The translations under genes were made by a program, and so were the position numbers. A DNA stretch of 54,522 nt, counting the filler, from Dirinaria sp. TL-2023a (taxonomy: Eukaryota): the NCBI GenBank assembly GCA_051941275.1. It is 3 parts of 3 records of this genome, joined end to end, with 100 filler letters (N's around TTAATTAATTAA, not from the genome) between each part and the next. Parts side by side here need not be neighbours in the genome. Positions count along the whole stretch, not along the records: positions 1 to 18,152 come from JAVEBF010000398.1; 2 more parts are not named here. One strand, given 5' to 3'. Below are positions 11,809 to 36,487 of this stretch, piece after piece. The notes beneath the pieces were generated by a model, which was given only the letters and a program-made list of their open reading frames with translations, ran no database searches and was not told the origin of the DNA. Position 1 is the first letter of the stretch. Every line of letters begins with the position of its first letter.

Positions 11809-12915
11809 ATGCAGAGGGAAACAGATGAAGAAATGTCCAAAGTGAGTTCACTTCGAAAGCAGCTGAATGATTTGACAGTGGAGAACTTCAAGAAAGCGGC
11901 CGCTATCGCGCAGCTGCAGCGAGAGCTGAACAGCGAAAGGACTAAGACTAGCGCGCTTCAGTCGCAAGTCAACCATTTGACAGCCAAGGTCGCTCAAGGT
12001 CAACAGGAATTGGATAATGAGAAGTGGACAGCCTCGAACCAGGCGAACCAGATCCAAAACCTGGCTAGTACAGTACACTTCCAGCTCAAAAATGACCTGC
12101 TCTCCAGCGATGTGGGGCCAGAGATGGTCGACGAAGCAGTCAGCTTGGTCATCAAGTCGCAAAGTTCGATACCCACTGCGATAACCAATGCCAACGTACC
12201 AGAATTCACGTTCACCCGAGAACGTACCGGCCTTGATTGGACCGCGTACACTTTCTGGCTTGCGTCGCACAACAGCGATGCAGCCGAAATCCTGGAGGAG
12301 GCCCATAACATTTTCAACAGCCAGACGACTCCTCTCGAGCGGGCCACTCAATCGCCGTGGGTTGACAATGCGCTGCTTCGGCTCTCGAACCGATTCCTTG
12401 ACGCAGTGACGACCGACAACACGAAGTTGGCGGTGCTGATGGTGCAGGCAATAGCGTACCTTGGCGGTTTGATATCCCCCCCTTCACTGCAAACGCTAAC
12501 ACAGGCGATAAACCAGTACAATGAGCGAATGGAGGATGGTTTCATTCTCAGGTCAATACAATCTTTGATTGTATCAGTCGACTCATGGTTATCGACCCTG
12601 GATGCTGGACGGGGGACACACGTGCTCGATCACACTAACAGCGCTCTAGCAGAAAATATGCGTCTCGTTGCGGAAAAAGCGGGGCTTATGATGTTAATTC
12701 AGACTACAGAAGCTGGCGTGGTCGTGCACGTCTTCGACAAGGAGGATATCGAGGCCATCTATGCGACCAGACGAGCCGTGGCAACATTTAAAATGAAGCC
12801 TTCCACCTTCATACCCGAGCAGTTCATGTCTTTTCTGTTGTCGGCAAGCGTGGCGATGGAAGAAGGTGGCGTGTGGGATTTGCTTTGGCCTTTGGTGCGT
12901 GCGATAAGTTCTTGA
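11809..12915 (+). CDS. Intronless orphan protein with N-terminal coiled coil (~368 aa from ATG 11809)
   Basis: Long open frame (11764-12915) with heptad-like stretch LRKQLNDL..LQRELNSE..LQSQVNHL. TATATA at 11546. No family recognised. Confidence 0.65.
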   Translation: MQRETDEEMSKVSSLRKQLNDLTVENFKKAAAIAQLQRELNSERTKTSALQSQVNHLTAKVAQGQQELDNEKWTASNQANQIQNLASTVHFQLKNDLLSSDVGPEMVDEAVSLVIKSQSSIPTAITNANVPEFTFTRERTGLDWTAYTFWLASHNSDAAEILEEAHNIFNSQTTPLERATQSPWVDNALLRLSNRFLDAVTTDNTKLAVLMVQAIAYLGGLISPPSLQTLTQAINQYNERMEDGFILRSIQSLIVSVDSWLSTLDAGRGTHVLDHTNSALAENMRLVAEKAGLMMLIQTTEAGVVVHVFDKEDIEAIYATRRAVATFKMKPSTFIPEQFMSFLLSASVAMEEGGVWDLLWPLVRAISS

Positions 12916-13022
12916 GACGCCTATTGTCTTGCTATGCTACTGCACCTGGCAAGCGTGTTTTTTATGGTTTCGAGACAAGCTCGTCCTTGGGATATCCTCA
13001 TTGACGGTATATGAAGTTTTTG

Positions 13023-13135
13023 CTCGCCCGGATGTTACTTTCCCAGGCTACACATGTTGTATTTCCTCGCCAGGATGCTACTTTCCCAGGCTACACATAT
13101 TGTATTTCCTCGCCCGGATGTTACTTTCCCAGGCT
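13023..13135 (+). repeat. 43-bp tandem repeat, 2.6 copies
   Basis: Unit CTCGCCCGGATGTTACTTTCCCAGGCTACACATGTTGTATTTC starts at 13023, 13066 and 13109. Confidence 0.95.
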
Positions 13136-15456: not shown

Positions 15457-16470
15457 ATGTCATACAACGGTGAGAACGACGCGGCCCAACAGCCTCAACC
15501 CCAGCCCTCCAACGATCATCAGCAGCCGCCGTCCTCTGAGGCTCAACCACGCGCCCAATCCTCGGCCTCCGAATCTGTGCCCACGCCCTCCACCTTTCAA
15601 ACAGCAGAGGCACAGATGGCCACCGGTGTGCAGCCGGCGCACTCGACTGCTTCGATTGCCTCTGCCGTGGCAGCAAACCCCCTTTCCCCACCTCCCACGG
15701 GTGCTGCGCCTTGGCCACAATATCATGTCGATCCGCCGGGCACTTTCAGTGGCTTTCGTGCCCGTGCCCCAAGGAATCGCGGTCGCGGTCGCGGTCGCGG
15801 TTCGCATAATTGGGGTGCCAATGACCGTCATGGTCAGGATTGGCGTGGTACTCCCTCTGTCCAGTCTCCACCATCCACGCCGGCACCATTCCTTCACCAA
15901 TATGGCCAACAGCCATACAGTTCTTTCCTCCCGGCGCTTCAATATGCGCAGTACGGCCAGCCATCGCCGTACGCTGCTGCACCTCCTCCCCCACCAGCTT
16001 CAATCGCCCCTCAAGCGCAGCCGACTCCTGCCCAAGGTCAGCTGCCACGTACTTCTGAGCACCATCGCCAGTTTCAAGGGTCTCAGCGTCGCGACAAGTC
16101 AAAGGGGGTCGAGAAGAAGACTAAGGGGTTTGCAGGAAATCCTGCAGGCACGAAAAAGCTCAAGCGAAACCTCAGAGCAGGCGCGCATAACGCAAAGAAG
16201 GAAGCTGAGCTCAAGCGACTGAAGGAGGGTGAAGAAACCAAGAAGCAGCAAGAGGAAGCTGCAGCAGCCAAGAAGGTGAAGGAAGAAAATATCACCCCAC
16301 CTAGACAACCATATGCGGCACCAACAGACGATCTTCAGAAAAGACTGGATGCCGTGGAGAAAGAGTCGAATGCGCCGAAGAAACAGTGGCAAGAGTCAGC
16401 GGCCAATAAGGAGAGAGATGAGCATGAGGGAGAAAGCAAAGAGGAGGAAAAGGAAGGCAGGGCGGAATGA
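15457..16470 (+). CDS. Intronless orphan low-complexity protein (P/Q-rich, RGRGRGRG motif, Y/Q-rich segment, K/E-rich C-terminus), 337 aa
   Basis: Long ATG-initiated ORF (ACAATG context) with a pyrimidine-rich leader and TATAT at ~15263. No family recognised. Confidence 0.65.
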   Translation: MSYNGENDAAQQPQPQPSNDHQQPPSSEAQPRAQSSASESVPTPSTFQTAEAQMATGVQPAHSTASIASAVAANPLSPPPTGAAPWPQYHVDPPGTFSGFRARAPRNRGRGRGRGSHNWGANDRHGQDWRGTPSVQSPPSTPAPFLHQYGQQPYSSFLPALQYAQYGQPSPYAAAPPPPPASIAPQAQPTPAQGQLPRTSEHHRQFQGSQRRDKSKGVEKKTKGFAGNPAGTKKLKRNLRAGAHNAKKEAELKRLKEGEETKKQQEEAAAAKKVKEENITPPRQPYAAPTDDLQKRLDAVEKESNAPKKQWQESAANKERDEHEGESKEEEKEGRAE

Positions 16471-16504
16471 AGAGGAAGCAGTCGCTAATGCTACGAGGGT
16501 CGTA

Positions 16505-16728
16505 CAGGATGAAGGTGACATCCTTAAAGAAAACACCAGGATGAGGTAGCGTCCTCAAGAGACTAACCAGGAAGAAGGTGGCGATATTAAAAAACCACGA
16601 GCACAAGCTAACTTTCTCAAGGAACTAATCAGGATGATGGTGACATCCTTAAGAAAACACCAGCATAACTCAACCTCTCCCCAAACTAATCAGGATGATG
16701 GTGACATCCTTAAGAAAACATCAGCATA
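16505..16728 (+). repeat. ~62-bp degenerate tandem repeat, 4 copies
   Basis: Core CAGGATGA(A/T)GGTGACATCCTTAAGAAAACA at 16505, 16568 (diverged), 16630 and 16691. Periods are 63, 62 and 61. Confidence 0.9.
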
Positions 16729-16784
16729 AAGTGGCAACACTGTTAGTCGTTGCGTTTCATAGAGGCTGTCACGAATCCATGGAT

Positions 16785-16961
16785 TGAGCGGGCAGTTGCT
16801 GCCTTGTTCATTATCCACTGAGCAGGTTGTTGCAACCATTGTTCATTACTTGATCTTCTGAGCGGGCAGTTTCTGCCTTGTTCATTGCTTGATCTCTGAG
16901 CGGGCAGTTTCTGCTTTGTTCATTACTTTATCCTCTGAGCACGTTGTTGCAATGCTGTTCA
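16785..16961 (+). repeat. Array of five ~34-40-nt hairpin units (TGAGC..GTTCA)
   Basis: Units start at 16785, 16819, 16859, 16897 and 16936. Each has an outer TGAGC/GTTCA stem and an inner 5-bp stem around a TTG/TTT loop. Confidence 0.9.
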
Positions 16962-17237
16962 GTGGTAGAATGTCTGGAAAAGGAAAAGCTACGGTAGATT
17001 CTGGACAAAGTCAAGACTTCGGTCTTTGACTACCAAATTTTAGAAAAAAAAAAATTCAAGAACTCTCAAAGTTCGACCGTGTGTGTCTTCGGCCTTACAC
17101 TGCCGCTGGAGATGCACCCCCTTTTTTTTTCATCTACGGTCCAGCTTGACTGGGTCTTGGAAGAAGAAAGCTCGGGATCTAATCGTATTCTGATTCTTGG
17201 TAAGTGTGCTAGAGTCGGCAGATACTTAAGATGTGCT

Positions 17238-17636
17238 TCTCAGAGTTCGAGCTAACCGAATCGAGGTTTCCTCGTATCTCCATCGTCTAACCTTGAAGAC
17301 TCGTTCGATCACCACAGAGAGGATTGATTAGAGATTTGAAGTATGTGCTCTGTTAGGGATAAGAAATGGATCCCATCAACATCCACAATGATCCACTTCA
17401 TCATAGAGGCTGAGGGTCGATCGATACGTGTTTGGCCGCAATGTCTGTCTCTCAGAGTTCGCGCTAACCGAATCGAGGTTTTCTCACATCCCCGTCGTCT
17501 AACTTTGAAGACTCGTTCGATCACCACAAAGAGGATCGATTGGATATTTGAATTATGTGATCTGTCAGGGATAAGAAATGGATCCCATCAACATCCACAT
17601 AAATCCACTTTAACATAGGGGCTGGGGTCTATCGAA
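17238..17636. repeat. 212-bp-period tandem duplication; each copy holds the bipartite motif in reverse orientation (copies 4 and 5)
   Basis: TCTCAGAGTTCG..GCTAACCGAATCGAGGTTT..TTGAAGACTCGTTCGATCACCACA..GGGATAAGAAATGGATCCCATCAACATCCACA at 17238 and 17450. Confidence 0.92.
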
Positions 17637-17834
17637 GAGATATGAGTACGGTGTTTGTACTTCATCTCGGATTAACTAGGGCCCGTAGACCGGATGTTGT
17701 GACGCTAAGGAAAATGTCACACAGCACGGGAGACAACAAGAGATACAGAATTTCTTTTCCTCAATATCGTTATCTTTGTTGCCTGCACAGGTACTTTTAT
17801 CACAAATGCTGTTTTATGCATGTAACAACGATCT

Positions 17835-17980
17835 GCGCGATTGTTCTAGAGACACTGGGTGGGGCTGTGCTTTGTCGACCGTATGTGTGGGTCGTGCTTC
17901 GATTTCTGCTTTAGATTTTGCTTCCAGTTTTGCTTCAAATTCGAACACGCAAGGCTTAGAAACCCCGATCTGGTTAGCGC
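17835..17980 (+). repeat. Bipartite dispersed motif, copy 6, with upstream extension
   Basis: TTTTGCTTCAAA-N18-AGAAACCCCGATCTGGTTAGCGC. Upstream blocks match 11165-11245. Confidence 0.75.
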
Positions 17981-18152
17981 AATATGTCCAAGTCTCGTCC
18001 GGTCTATGGGAAATGGTAAACCTCTCAAAATTCGCGAAGTAGGGACTGAATTTATATATTTCGTTGTATATTCTCCCTCAAAATTTGTGGGAGCTCCAAG
18101 GTGTAGCAATAAGTAACCATCTACTACTAGGAAGTCCAAAATCGTCCGCTTC

Positions 18153-18252
18153 NNNNNNNNNNNNNNNNNNNNNNNNNNNNNNNNNNNNNNNNNNNNTTAA
18201 TTAATTAANNNNNNNNNNNNNNNNNNNNNNNNNNNNNNNNNNNNNNNNNNNN
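18153..18252. other. Artificial contig-joining gap (44 N + TTAATTAATTAA + 44 N)
   Basis: Exactly 100 nt with a central six-frame-stop linker. Identical to the gap at 36388. Confidence 0.98.
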
Positions 18253-18973
18253 TTATATACGTCTCGATACTGTCTGTGTCTTGACGTCAGGTCTCCATTA
18301 ACAAGATGTAGACCTACCTCGACAAGAATGATATAAAATTAAAAATCGTTACTTAGAGTATCAACGTCTAGAGTTTTTTATTAAAATTTTACTGTTACTT
18401 TTTGCGTATTATTAATCATTAAATCGTTTATTTCTTGAACAGTTGCATATCATTACACGGTTTTTACCTAGTGCAGATTTCTTTCACGGTACGGAGGTAG
18501 TTTCTTCGCTATATATTCTATCATTTCTATGGTAAAGGTAGCTCTAACCTCTCGGACCGACTCTAATTTTCGGACAAGGGTTTTCGACAGCCAAGACCAC
18601 CGTAGCACGTGATCTTAATCTTCCCCCCTCATTCTTGGCCTGCGTCCAATAATCTTCAGGAAAGTGAATAGGTACCTAGTTCACGAGAAAGATGATGAGA
18701 TCCACAATACAATTCATGAGCAAATTCGGGACCACTGAGCTCGAGACGGAAATCCACGTAAAACGGTACCTTACATGTAGTTATCGTACCTACCTTAGGC
18801 GGGCTAAGCTGTCAGGAAAGCAATATGTGTAAATTTCGGCGTAGACCTGTAATGTTTCCTCAATCTGATCCTTACCTACCTGAATTACCAACCCATAAGA
18901 CATTTGCATTGCTGCTATCCGTGGGTTGCGCCTTTCCTCCGTCTCCCGATCGCGACAGCAATATACTTGTGGG

Positions 18974-20126
18974 ATGTCTAAGACGGTCTTGATAGGCTCT
19001 ACAGGCCAATTTGACGAGCTGCTTAGCAAATCTAAGGTTGTTGTCACAGACTGTACGTTTCCTTCGCCTTTGGAGACGGTGTCGCTTTCCGTCGCACTCA
19101 AGCAAGATTGGCTAATCTAAAGCTATTACGCAGTCTACGCCGACTGGTGTGCACCATGCAAGGCCATCGGCCCACACTACGAGCAATTATCCGCTCAGTT
19201 GTCCCGCTCCCAGAAGGTCACATTTGCTAAGGTCAATACCGATCACCAGCAAGAAATTGCTCAAAGATATGGCGTCACAGCGTAAGTCACGGATGCAAGT
19301 TATAGACCAGGCCAGCAACTTTTATAGCTAATCTGCGTGTGGCAGTCTCCCTACATTCATGATCTTTAAAAACAACCAGACAGTCTCCACTATCCGAGGA
19401 CCAGATGCAACGCAGCTGTCGGACGCTATCAAAAAGATTGCCGCAGAGGCAGACTCCGACGGAGCAGGAGGTTTCGGCGAGGCAAGCGGCAACGGGTCGA
19501 GGTGGTTAGGGGCGGATCTGCCGCGAGGCTACACTGATGTCACCGAGGAAGTGGACGTCCAGGGCTTGGACCTGCTGAACGCAAACAGTGAACTTGGTGG
19601 GGCCAGAACGTTCTTCCAAGAAAGTAGACCTTCGGTATTGAACGGGAAGAGCAAGGCAAGTACGAAAGAGGGCGTCAAAGACTGGGTCGAGAGTGATACG
19701 GATGAACAACTTATGCTTTTCATCCCATTCCGTGCAACTTTGAAAATACACAGCCTTCAAATCACTTCTAAGCCCCAAATCCCAAGCGAAGTGGACACGG
19801 AGGCAGCAGATATTCCTATGCGGCCACGAACGATCCAGGTCTACACAAATCGGGCGCATGTACTAGGCTTCGAAGAGGCTGAGGACGTTCCAGCTACACA
19901 GTCGATTACTTTACGCCCATCAGATTGGAGCGCGGAAACGGCGACTAGTAGGATTGATTTGCGATTTGTTAAATTTCAAAACGTCACCTCGCTGGTGCTT
20001 TTTGTTGTTGACGGGGATGGGCAGAGCGATAAGGTTCGGATTGATCGCATCAGAATAATTGGTGAGATAGGAGAGAAGCGAGAGCTCGGGAAGCTTGAAA
20101 AGATCGGAGATCAAGCTGGCGAGTGA
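18974..20126 (+). CDS. Thioredoxin + PITH domain protein (TXNL1/Txl1-like), ~335 aa; exons 18974-19052, 19134-19281, 19346-20126
   Basis: Spliced sequence reads VVTDFYADWCAPCK..ALPTFMIFK. PITH motifs VESDTDEQLMLFIPF and LRFVKFQNVTSLVLFV. Confidence 0.93.
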
Positions 20127-23855: not shown

Positions 23856-25187
23856 GCTATACCCCTACACTGGCGCCGAGAGCAAGGAGAGATAGAGATC
23901 GCCGCCGCGCGGACACACAGGGTTCCTTGAAGCTAGGAAAATCGTTTATCAGGAATGTTTCCAGAGCTGAAAGCGCGGGAGGACAGGATGTGAATGTAGC
24001 TAGCGATGATCGATCAGACGCTATGGTATATGAAGACTAAGAGACAATCGGGAGAAGTGTTAGGGAGGATCGAAGAGGATGAACAGGTAGCACAACAACC
24101 GACTGTCAACTAAAGACCATGAGCTTGCTCTGCAAGTCTGTTCAGGCTTTAGCACGTCCACAGAAGCAGTTCGAGTGTAAAGATCGTGGCCCGAGTCCCC
24201 AGGCGAGATCGTGTCCAGTAAAAAGCCAGCCAGGATCGACGACGTATACTGGTGGCTTGTCGCAAGCCAGTATATGTCTTCACGCTTACAAGTTTTGGAA
24301 ATTTTCCCCAGGGGTTAGGGCCAAAGTTGCAGCCAGTCGTACTGACTCTACGCACTTGATTCCAGTTTGCTTCTCCAGATAACGTGTCGCCAACAGAAGA
24401 TCGATTGTGTTCGGGATGCGATAGCAAGGAGCAGGATAAGCCGCTCGAATACTAAGTACGGAGCGATAGCAACCGATGTTGGCGTGAAGAAACCTGCCTG
24501 TGCTGCCTTGGAGAGCAAGCAAGAGAGAATCGGTTACCAAGAAAGGTACAGCTGGAGGTGAGTATTTTTGCGTATGGGACCCGGGATTGCTGGTATCTAG
24601 GTAGTATGTCGTGAACCGAGAGGGCGGAAGACGGAGTTGCGCTGATGGACGGGGAGCAATACCTAAGACATACCAAGGCAAGGTACCTACAGAGTAGTGT
24701 TTAGTACCGTTCCTTATATGGTATCTCAGGTACTTTTAAGGTATGTACTGTAGGTAAGGTATGGAGGTAGTAGGATCTGGGCACTTCGAGGCTAGACCGC
24801 GTTTGATAGCTGGCTTATTTAAGCTTTCTGCTGAAGAATCCAAGTGGAAGCCAATCAGCGAAATACCATAAGGCTCTGACGCTGCGATCTCTCATCTATG
24901 GCATTTCACACACGCAAATAAGAGGTAGTGGCTAGAGTAAGTTGACATTCTATTTTGAGAGTAAGCTATCAAAGGTCCCATAGAAGTAAGAGCTCAGTAA
25001 ATGTGATTATCTTCCATTAATTACGTATATCCAGGATGCCCCCCAGTGAAGAGTCAAAACAAAGACAGCTCCAGCCGCTTCACACCATCGGCTCCCCATA
25101 GCGGCGGACATCTTTGGTGACCGATGAGTCTGACCGCTTTGTTTACAATTAGGTAAGTTTTTGATTACATAGGCCATCCTATATCAA

Positions 25188-36387: not shown

Positions 36388-36487
36388 NNNNNNNNNNNNN
36401 NNNNNNNNNNNNNNNNNNNNNNNNNNNNNNNTTAATTAATTAANNNNNNNNNNNNNNNNNNNNNNNNNNNNNNNNNNNNNNNNNNNN
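36388..36487. other. Artificial contig-joining gap (44 N + TTAATTAATTAA + 44 N)
   Basis: Same structure as 18153-18252. Confidence 0.98.

Follow-up and report, generated by a model that had tools for sequence, protein, structure and literature searches.

A putative RNA stem-loop array with preserved base pairing in the 3' flank of an orphan reading frame of a lichen fungus

Does a short tandem repeat that follows an orphan reading frame in a fungal genome give rise to a structured RNA, or is it a piece of DNA that multiplied without function? This question is raised by five hairpin-like units at positions 16785-16961 of a 54,522-nt stretch of DNA from Dirinaria sp. TL-2023a, which was analysed as a whole and is referred to here as the window. 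The window consists of three contigs of ~18.1 kb each that are joined by N-TTAATTAATTAA-N linkers (18153-18252 and 36388-36487); features lying across a linker from each other are not genome neighbours. The array sits on the first contig, 1.2 kb before the contig end, and the thioredoxin/PITH gene at 19359 is no neighbour of it, because this gene lies on a different contig. The genes found in the window are ascomycete in kind (a Spc7/MELT kinetochore protein, a Lys2-like reductase, a PP1-type phosphatase and DUF7730). For the Spc7-like protein, an identical match was found in a lichen fungus assembled from metagenome data (Dirinaria sp.), the next relative being 75% identical and others 55% at most.

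The array contains five tandem units on the + strand with a period of ~38 nt and the type order A-B-A-A-B. Tandem Repeats Finder reported a period of 38, 4.1 copies, 79% matches and a score of 173 over 16785-16940. The units share one hairpin design of 26-27 nt, with an invariant lower stem (UGAGC/GUUCA, including a G·U pair), a 1-2 nt bulge on the 3' side (U, AU or C), a variable upper stem of 5 bp and a triloop that is closed by G-C and reads UUG in three units and UUU in two. Unit 1 (16785-16810) is of type A and reads TGAGCG / GGCAG / TTG / CTGCC / T-TGTTCA. Two further type A units are unit 3 (16859-16884; TGAGCG / GGCAG / TTT / CTGCC / T-TGTTCA) and unit 4 (16897-16922; TGAGCG / GGCAG / TTT / CTGCT / T-TGTTCA); in the latter, the lowest pair of the upper stem has changed from G-C to G·U. 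Unit 2 (16819-16845) is of type B and reads TGAGCA / GGTTG / TTG / CAACC / AT-TGTTCA, with the 2-nt bulge AU. Unit 5 (16936-16961; TGAGCA / CGTTG / TTG / CAATG / C-TGTTCA) is a type B derivative that differs from unit 2 by one G-C to C-G swap and one change from G-C to G·U. These letters agree exactly with the unit sequences given in an earlier, sequence-only reading of the locus.

The spacers between the units (8-13 nt, pyrimidine-rich) diverge, while the lower stem is invariant in 5/5 units. A search for the pattern TGAGC-N14-17-GTTCA revealed six matches in the window compared with 0.77 expected, a number reached by none of 100 shuffles, and five of them are the array. The remaining match, at 24120 (-5.8 kcal/mol, z -0.55), can be put down to chance, as 58 of 200 shuffles folded as well or better. 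Units 2 and 5 belong to a common type and are spaced by 117 nt. Self-BLAST aligned unit 1 and the start of unit 2 with unit 4 and the start of unit 5 at 84% over 56 nt, from which it appears that the array grew by duplication of a three-unit block. Like minisatellites, the array is made of head-to-tail copies of a 10-100 nt unit, and its five cores were found by the pattern as well as by a covariance model.

Individual comparison of the stems showed how their sequences had changed. In the five-unit alignment, all 55 pair cells hold standard pairs and none is broken. Of the 11 pairs, six are constant, another two show a change in one partner only (G·U/A-U and G-C/G·U), and in the other three both partners have been replaced, in a total of five cells (C-G to U-A, A-U to U-A and G-C to C-G). 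Two pairs are changed on both sides in unit 2 relative to type A; pair 20-32 is GU in unit 4 and CG in unit 5, and pair 21-31 is GU in unit 5. Variation in 8 of the 22 stem columns shows that the stems have had time to change. Of 500 shuffles, only 3 scored as high as the array in pairing or covariation, and slid registers paired 29-71% of the cells. The proposal that the inner stem changes in sequence with its pairing retained is supported by these counts.

The alignment implies nine stem substitutions. Types A and B are separated by five of them; a further three occurred in the lineage of unit 5 and a single one in that of unit 4. When nine substitutions were placed randomly, all pairs were kept in 6, 40 and 270 of 400,000 trials for transition/transversion weights of 1, 2 and 4, respectively; independent neutral point substitution is therefore rejected. 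The G-C to C-G swap of unit 5 keeps the pair within the unit, whereas a duplex of units 2 and 5 would acquire G·G and C·C (by reading). The pairing preserved is therefore that of local hairpins and not a long-range one. The covariation sample comprises five paralogous units of one genome, and as few as two events may underlie the three double changes, those of units 2 and 5 being inherited in common. With this sample of paralogues, the kept pairing suggests a structured RNA element without amounting to proof.

Folding of the individual units as + strand RNA yielded one 11-bp hairpin each, with -12.3, -9.0, -12.3, -9.5 and -8.0 kcal/mol for units 1-5 and a z-score of -3.50 for unit 3. The reverse-complement RNAs folded with -6.5, -4.7, -6.5, -3.2 and -2.8 kcal/mol, and only their inner stem formed. 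The fixed G·U is the fourth pair of the lower stem, and it is this invariant pair, together with three additional G·U states, that confines the full 11-bp hairpin to + strand RNA. The sequence-only reading had described RNA-like hairpins whose G-U pairs work on the + strand only, and both points held in these folds (-8 to -12.3 kcal/mol on the + strand compared with -2.8 to -6.5 kcal/mol on the - strand). All four separate G·U states are on the + strand, where no A·C is seen (read from the alignment). The chance of this bias is 1 in 16 if both strands were equally likely, and it is suggestive only.

With DNA parameters the units reached -2.0 to -4.3 kcal/mol on either strand, with no strand difference and mostly with the inner stem alone. 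Considering these weak DNA hairpins, the invariant lower stem makes sense as RNA only. Folding of the whole array as RNA gave z -4.05 on the + strand (0/200 shuffles as good) compared with z -1.07 on the - strand (28/200). The value of -4.05 is mostly owed to inter-unit pairing: at its energy minimum (-75.1 kcal/mol) the whole array forms a nested structure between different units, and the five local hairpins together reach -51.1 kcal/mol. In 100-nt sliding windows across the array, the + strand z-scores were just -0.8 to -1.5.

The reading frame upstream of the array, ORF2 (15457-16470, + strand), encodes 337 aa with a P/Q-rich N-terminal part, an RG repeat (RGRGRGRG) and a K/E-rich tail. The distance from its stop codon (16468-16470) to the array is 314 nt, close to the ~315 nt given before. 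The in-frame codon score of ORF2 was 0.16 per codon compared with 0.17-0.28 for six conserved genes and one further ORF; its other frames scored -0.13 and -0.27. Two features make ORF2 look like a real + strand gene, namely a codon score on a par with conserved genes and the presence of TATA-like and CT-rich tracts further upstream (by reading). A search for relatives in protein libraries with 5.8 billion clusters or 1.84 billion representatives detected ORF2 itself as the sole match (1/1) in both; no Pfam family was assigned and no usable Atlas match was obtained. ORF2 is thus an orphan with an RG repeat, as had been stated. An upstream neighbour, the ORF at 11809-12915, likewise has no relative in the protein collection, and a 43-nt tandem repeat (13019-13135; 2.7 copies, 91% matches) lies downstream of it.

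Among the sequencing runs searched, no RNA run contained the locus, and one public DNA run matched a 0.10 share of the sampled sequence words. This DNA run contained a single 224-nt contig over 15699-15934 of ORF2, which does not cover the array. This contig is identical to the window over its 224 nt except for a 12-nt deletion in a TCGCGG hexamer repeat at 15777-15801. The hexamer repeat encodes the RG stretch, and the RG repeat of ORF2 accordingly displays length polymorphism. Past the ORF2 stop, the glutamate-rich tail runs on in the +1 frame for 26 codons; the stop may therefore not mark the true end of ORF2, or this end may have moved in recent times.

Three different tandem arrays (62 nt x4, 38 nt x5 and 212 nt x2) and MITE-like fragments occupy the 1.2 kb that follow ORF2, and this flank is a duplication-prone and possibly neutral stretch. 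Between the ORF2 stop and the hairpin array lies a 61-63 nt tandem repeat in four copies (16505-16735, + strand; self-BLAST 76% over 164 nt), three of which contain AGGAUG-N7-CAUCCU. Each of the copies resembles a decayed coding end (TNQDDGDILKKTPA-stop) with shifting frames. Four A-rich motifs of the TTAAGAAAAC type are located within these repeats upstream of the array. We take such motifs to resemble yeast poly(A) positioning elements, and ORF2 mRNAs may therefore end before the array.

Downstream of the array, a tract of 11 A residues was counted by script at 17044-17054 (+ strand), one residue shorter than the A12 reported before. Between the array and this tract lies a hairpin with a C(UUCG)G loop (17009-17031, + strand); the surrounding 16995-17045 folded with -10.8 kcal/mol and z -1.48, and the - strand was about equal. 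A 13-bp stem containing G·U pairs follows the A tract at 17081-17117 and forms on the + strand only. The segment 17056-17140 folded on the + strand with -24.1 kcal/mol and z -2.50 (2/200 shuffles as good) compared with z -0.09 on the - strand, and a sliding window at 17050-17149 gave z -3.16 compared with -0.34. Both the C(UUCG)G hairpin and the 13-bp stem are placed between the array and a T9 run. Further on, GTAAGT (17201) and, behind it, GCTAAC (17250) look like the start and the branch point of a fungal intron (by reading), and a 212-nt tandem duplication (two copies, 17238-17635, 88% identity) starts with an inverted MITE-like motif. A dispersed element of ~75 nt occurs in three copies on the first contig (11243-11305, 13555-13631 and 17907-17990), all intergenic and on the + strand, with a mean column identity of 70% in the three-copy alignment. 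Its 19-nt end motif had four matches compared with 0.02 expected, in both orientations, and is inverted at 17251 and 17463; the element looks like remnants of a small MITE-like transposon. A retrocopy of ORF2, array and A tract between target-site duplications was considered as well and discarded, as the best direct repeat measured 7 nt and was matched or beaten in 674 of 2000 shuffles.

We tentatively read the array as a putative + strand RNA stem-loop array in or after the 3' UTR of ORF2, which we consider possible rather than probable. This reading is favoured because the lower stem with its wobble and bulge is invariant, the upper stem keeps pairing only, the triloop is U-rich and the structure is stable only as + strand RNA; the + strand-only structure just downstream (17081-17117) was also counted in its favour.

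The strongest competitor, somewhat unlikely in our view, is a neutral palindromic minisatellite, i.e. an imperfect inverted repeat that expanded by slippage and whose arms were kept complementary by intrastrand DNA template switching, with no RNA function. Hairpin-forming units favour replication slippage, and complementary changes can arise in DNA quasi-palindromes through template switching, with no need for a function as RNA. The locus evidently duplicates readily, given the three adjacent tandem arrays of unrelated sequence in 1.2 kb, and the adjacent type B double changes (CA to UU with UG to AA) fit a single tract copied from arm to arm. Template switching, however, pushes the arms to perfect Watson-Crick complementarity. 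Against this expectation, the array has retained its bulge, the invariant G·U and the new G·U pairs of units 4 and 5, all on the + strand. The DNA hairpins of -2.0 to -4.3 kcal/mol are moreover marginal and represent a poor substrate for templated repair of the outer stem, and the lower stem stayed invariant in all five units while the spacers diverged. Consistent with a young neutral repeat are the modest sliding-window z-scores, the failure to find relatives or further copies in 54 kb, and the adjoining 62-nt repeat, which has a short inverted repeat that shows no covariation.

Distinctly less probable is an origin from transposon DNA, the units being, for example, tandemly reiterated Helitron-like 3' ends or repeats from the subterminal part of a DNA transposon, within a gene flank strewn with transposons. 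The 3' end of a Helitron consists of a hairpin 10-12 nt before a CTRR terminus, which is followed by a host T. CTGA or CTGG is found 11-12 nt after the hairpin in four of the five units (7 nt in unit 1), but the base after CTGR is G or A and not the T expected at a Helitron junction. The flank does contain the ~75 nt dispersed element in three copies on the contig, with its end motif at four matches compared with 0.02 expected, and the contig breaks 1.2 kb beyond the array; the MITE-like inverted motifs, however, lie at 17251-17978, a region that does not include the array. A Rep/helicase or transposase domain was present in 0/17 ORFs of at least 200 aa, the covariance model detected no further copy in 54 kb on the three contigs, and the DNA hairpins are weak.

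Searches for relatives of the array were carried out in the window and in public sequence collections. A covariance model of the five units, run over the 54-kb window with filters off, detected the five units only, with 41-48 bits (46.8 bits for unit 1); the next match had 10.9 bits and an E-value of 1.9. In metagenomes, a two-unit pattern matched eight loci, about the chance number by our own estimate, all of them isolated matches in mostly coding-like, unrelated sequence that contained no arrays. The same pattern matched four loci in prokaryote genome contigs, and a looser pattern matched 23 loci in viral contigs, again revealing no array. Among these 27 prokaryote and viral loci, 25 hold at most one unit-like match, and the other two, which are the same sequence, hold two and are not arrays. 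A full-text literature search found no description of tandem hairpin repeats in fungal UTRs.

Comparison with Rfam 15 over the whole window yielded 0 matches at the gathering score. At E-values of up to 10 over 16300-19400, four weak matches were obtained, none of which overlaps 16785-16961. A tRNA scan of the DNA found 0 genes. For C/D box snoRNAs, only the archaeal sR52 and sR55 families were detected, below threshold (18.4 and 15.5 bits compared with gathering scores of 50 and 35; E 1.1 and 2.8) and upstream at 16438-16564. C/D box snoRNAs are RNAs of 70-100 nt in which a terminal stem joins the C and D boxes; the array units, with 38 nt and with these weak matches lying upstream of them, were rejected as members. 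Several known hairpin types were rejected on their loops: the Smaug/Vts1 recognition element has the hairpin loop CNGG(N) and substrates of the RNase III Rnt1 have an AGNN tetraloop, neither of which corresponds to the UUG/UUU triloops of the array. The iron-responsive element is characterised by a CAGUGN loop and a 5' C bulge, so that both the loop and the bulge position differ from the array, where the bulge is on the 3' side. Roquin constitutive decay elements carry a pyrimidine-purine-pyrimidine triloop on a UUC/GAA upper stem and are unlike the UUG/UUU triloops on GGCAG/CUGCC or GGUUG/CAACC stems. Inspection by eye for Zn2Cys6-type CGG-N-CCG, GATA, PUF-like UGUA and Nab3-like UCUUG motifs identified none that fits all units. 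The array belongs to no known RNA family, and tandem stem-loops after a gene are of a familiar kind.

Two minor explanations were also considered. An array of protein-binding sites at the DNA level, for instance an upstream activating or insulator element with a dimeric factor on the imperfect palindrome TGAGC...GTTCA, appears highly improbable to us. It would account for five regularly spaced copies of an invariant half-site pair, and GTAAGT at 17201 with GCTAAC at 17250 hints at another + strand transcription unit. Such sites nevertheless predict a conserved sequence, whereas here the 16 nt that separate the half-sites co-vary in a self-complementary manner; no convincing gene was seen downstream, the remainder of the contig offering only ORFs of 90-91 aa inside repeats, and the units do not contain CGG-N-CCG or another known fungal palindromic site (by reading). 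A milRNA-like or snoRNA-like small-RNA precursor, which the sequence-only reading had offered as an option, is the least credible of all: the array does consist of hairpins, CUGA (D-box-like) precedes four of the five units (by reading) and the weak C/D-box Rfam matches lie upstream at 16438-16564, but 11-bp stems in 26-27 nt are too short for Dicer-type precursors, Rfam gave no match within 16785-16961 at E-values of up to 10, and to our knowledge any C/D or H/ACA snoRNA is longer than the 38-nt units.

Several known systems resemble the array in part. In metazoa, 3' UTR stem-loop arrays are represented by the five iron-responsive elements of the transferrin-receptor mRNA and by multiple Roquin-bound triloop stem-loops. 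As in these, several small hairpins of the same design with small loops stand in a row downstream of a coding region, and the recognition surface is conserved in sequence whereas the remaining stem is conserved in shape only. The loop and bulge signatures differ, however, with no CAGUGN and C bulge and no triloop on a UUC/GAA stem. Moreover, the array, a putative RNA element, is a recent tandem repeat with near-identical spacers and not a set of dispersed elements found across species. The roX RNA of Drosophila is a long non-coding RNA with conserved roX-box sequences and a known function; its tandem stem-loops were reportedly described by Ilik et al. in 2013. Repeated stem-loops are common to both, and the multivalent protein platform on one RNA that is a feature of roX is proposed for the array, which has no sequence or taxonomic relation to it.

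At the DNA level, the array resembles palindromic minisatellites and products of quasi-palindrome mutagenesis in that the tandem unit holds an inverted repeat whose two arms can both be changed by a DNA mechanism, but its new one-strand G·U pairs and conserved bulge are not expected from quasi-palindrome correction. With the Helitron 3' terminal hairpin it shares a short hairpin followed by CTGA/CTGG at 11-12 nt in 4/5 units; in contrast to Helitrons there is no T after the terminus, no RepHel gene, 5' end or further copies were found in the window, and the DNA hairpin is weak. Bacterial REP/BIME arrays are likewise small imperfect palindromes after genes with co-varying stems; these are prokaryotic, dispersed in many copies across the genome and unrelated to the array in sequence.

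If the array is indeed an RNA stem-loop array, the following course of events can be proposed. A single 38-nt module would have been multiplied in tandem, recently and in this lineage only. The array would be transcribed on the + strand, either as part of the ORF2 3' UTR or through read-through or independent transcription of the flank, and the RNA would fold co-transcriptionally into five small stem-loops. The upper stem would need helicity only, while the lower stem UGAGC/GUUCA, the wobble and the bulge would stay fixed since an RNA-binding factor, which we infer, reads them. The five copies suggest a multivalent docking platform, which may set the stability, translation or location of the RNA. 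That this factor is the ORF2 protein, as the sequence-only reading had put forward, is speculation based on adjacency and the RG motif. Still further reaching, and very unlikely in our estimation, is an RNA platform newly evolved in this lineage, which would lie in the 3' UTR of an orphan gene and be bound multivalently by the RG-rich disordered protein of this gene or by a partner; gene and element would then be an autoregulatory or condensate-forming pair that arose together in one lichen-fungus lineage, with repeat number tuning the response.

Taken together, the observation is real and better than chance, and its reading as RNA, drawn from one genome, is reasonable but unproven. Should the array be a neutral minisatellite, it would be a reason for caution, because paralogous repeat units can mimic RNA covariation via DNA template switching, and 'covariation' in the repeats of a single genome would then be no sign of selection. 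We know of almost no RNA biology in lichen fungi. If transcribed and functional, the array would be a very young cis-regulatory RNA in mid-evolution, a hairpin module that was multiplied by tandem duplication beside an orphan gene and whose copies already differ by compensatory changes. The origin of structured UTR elements and of de novo genes, which can seldom be observed, would then be open to view.
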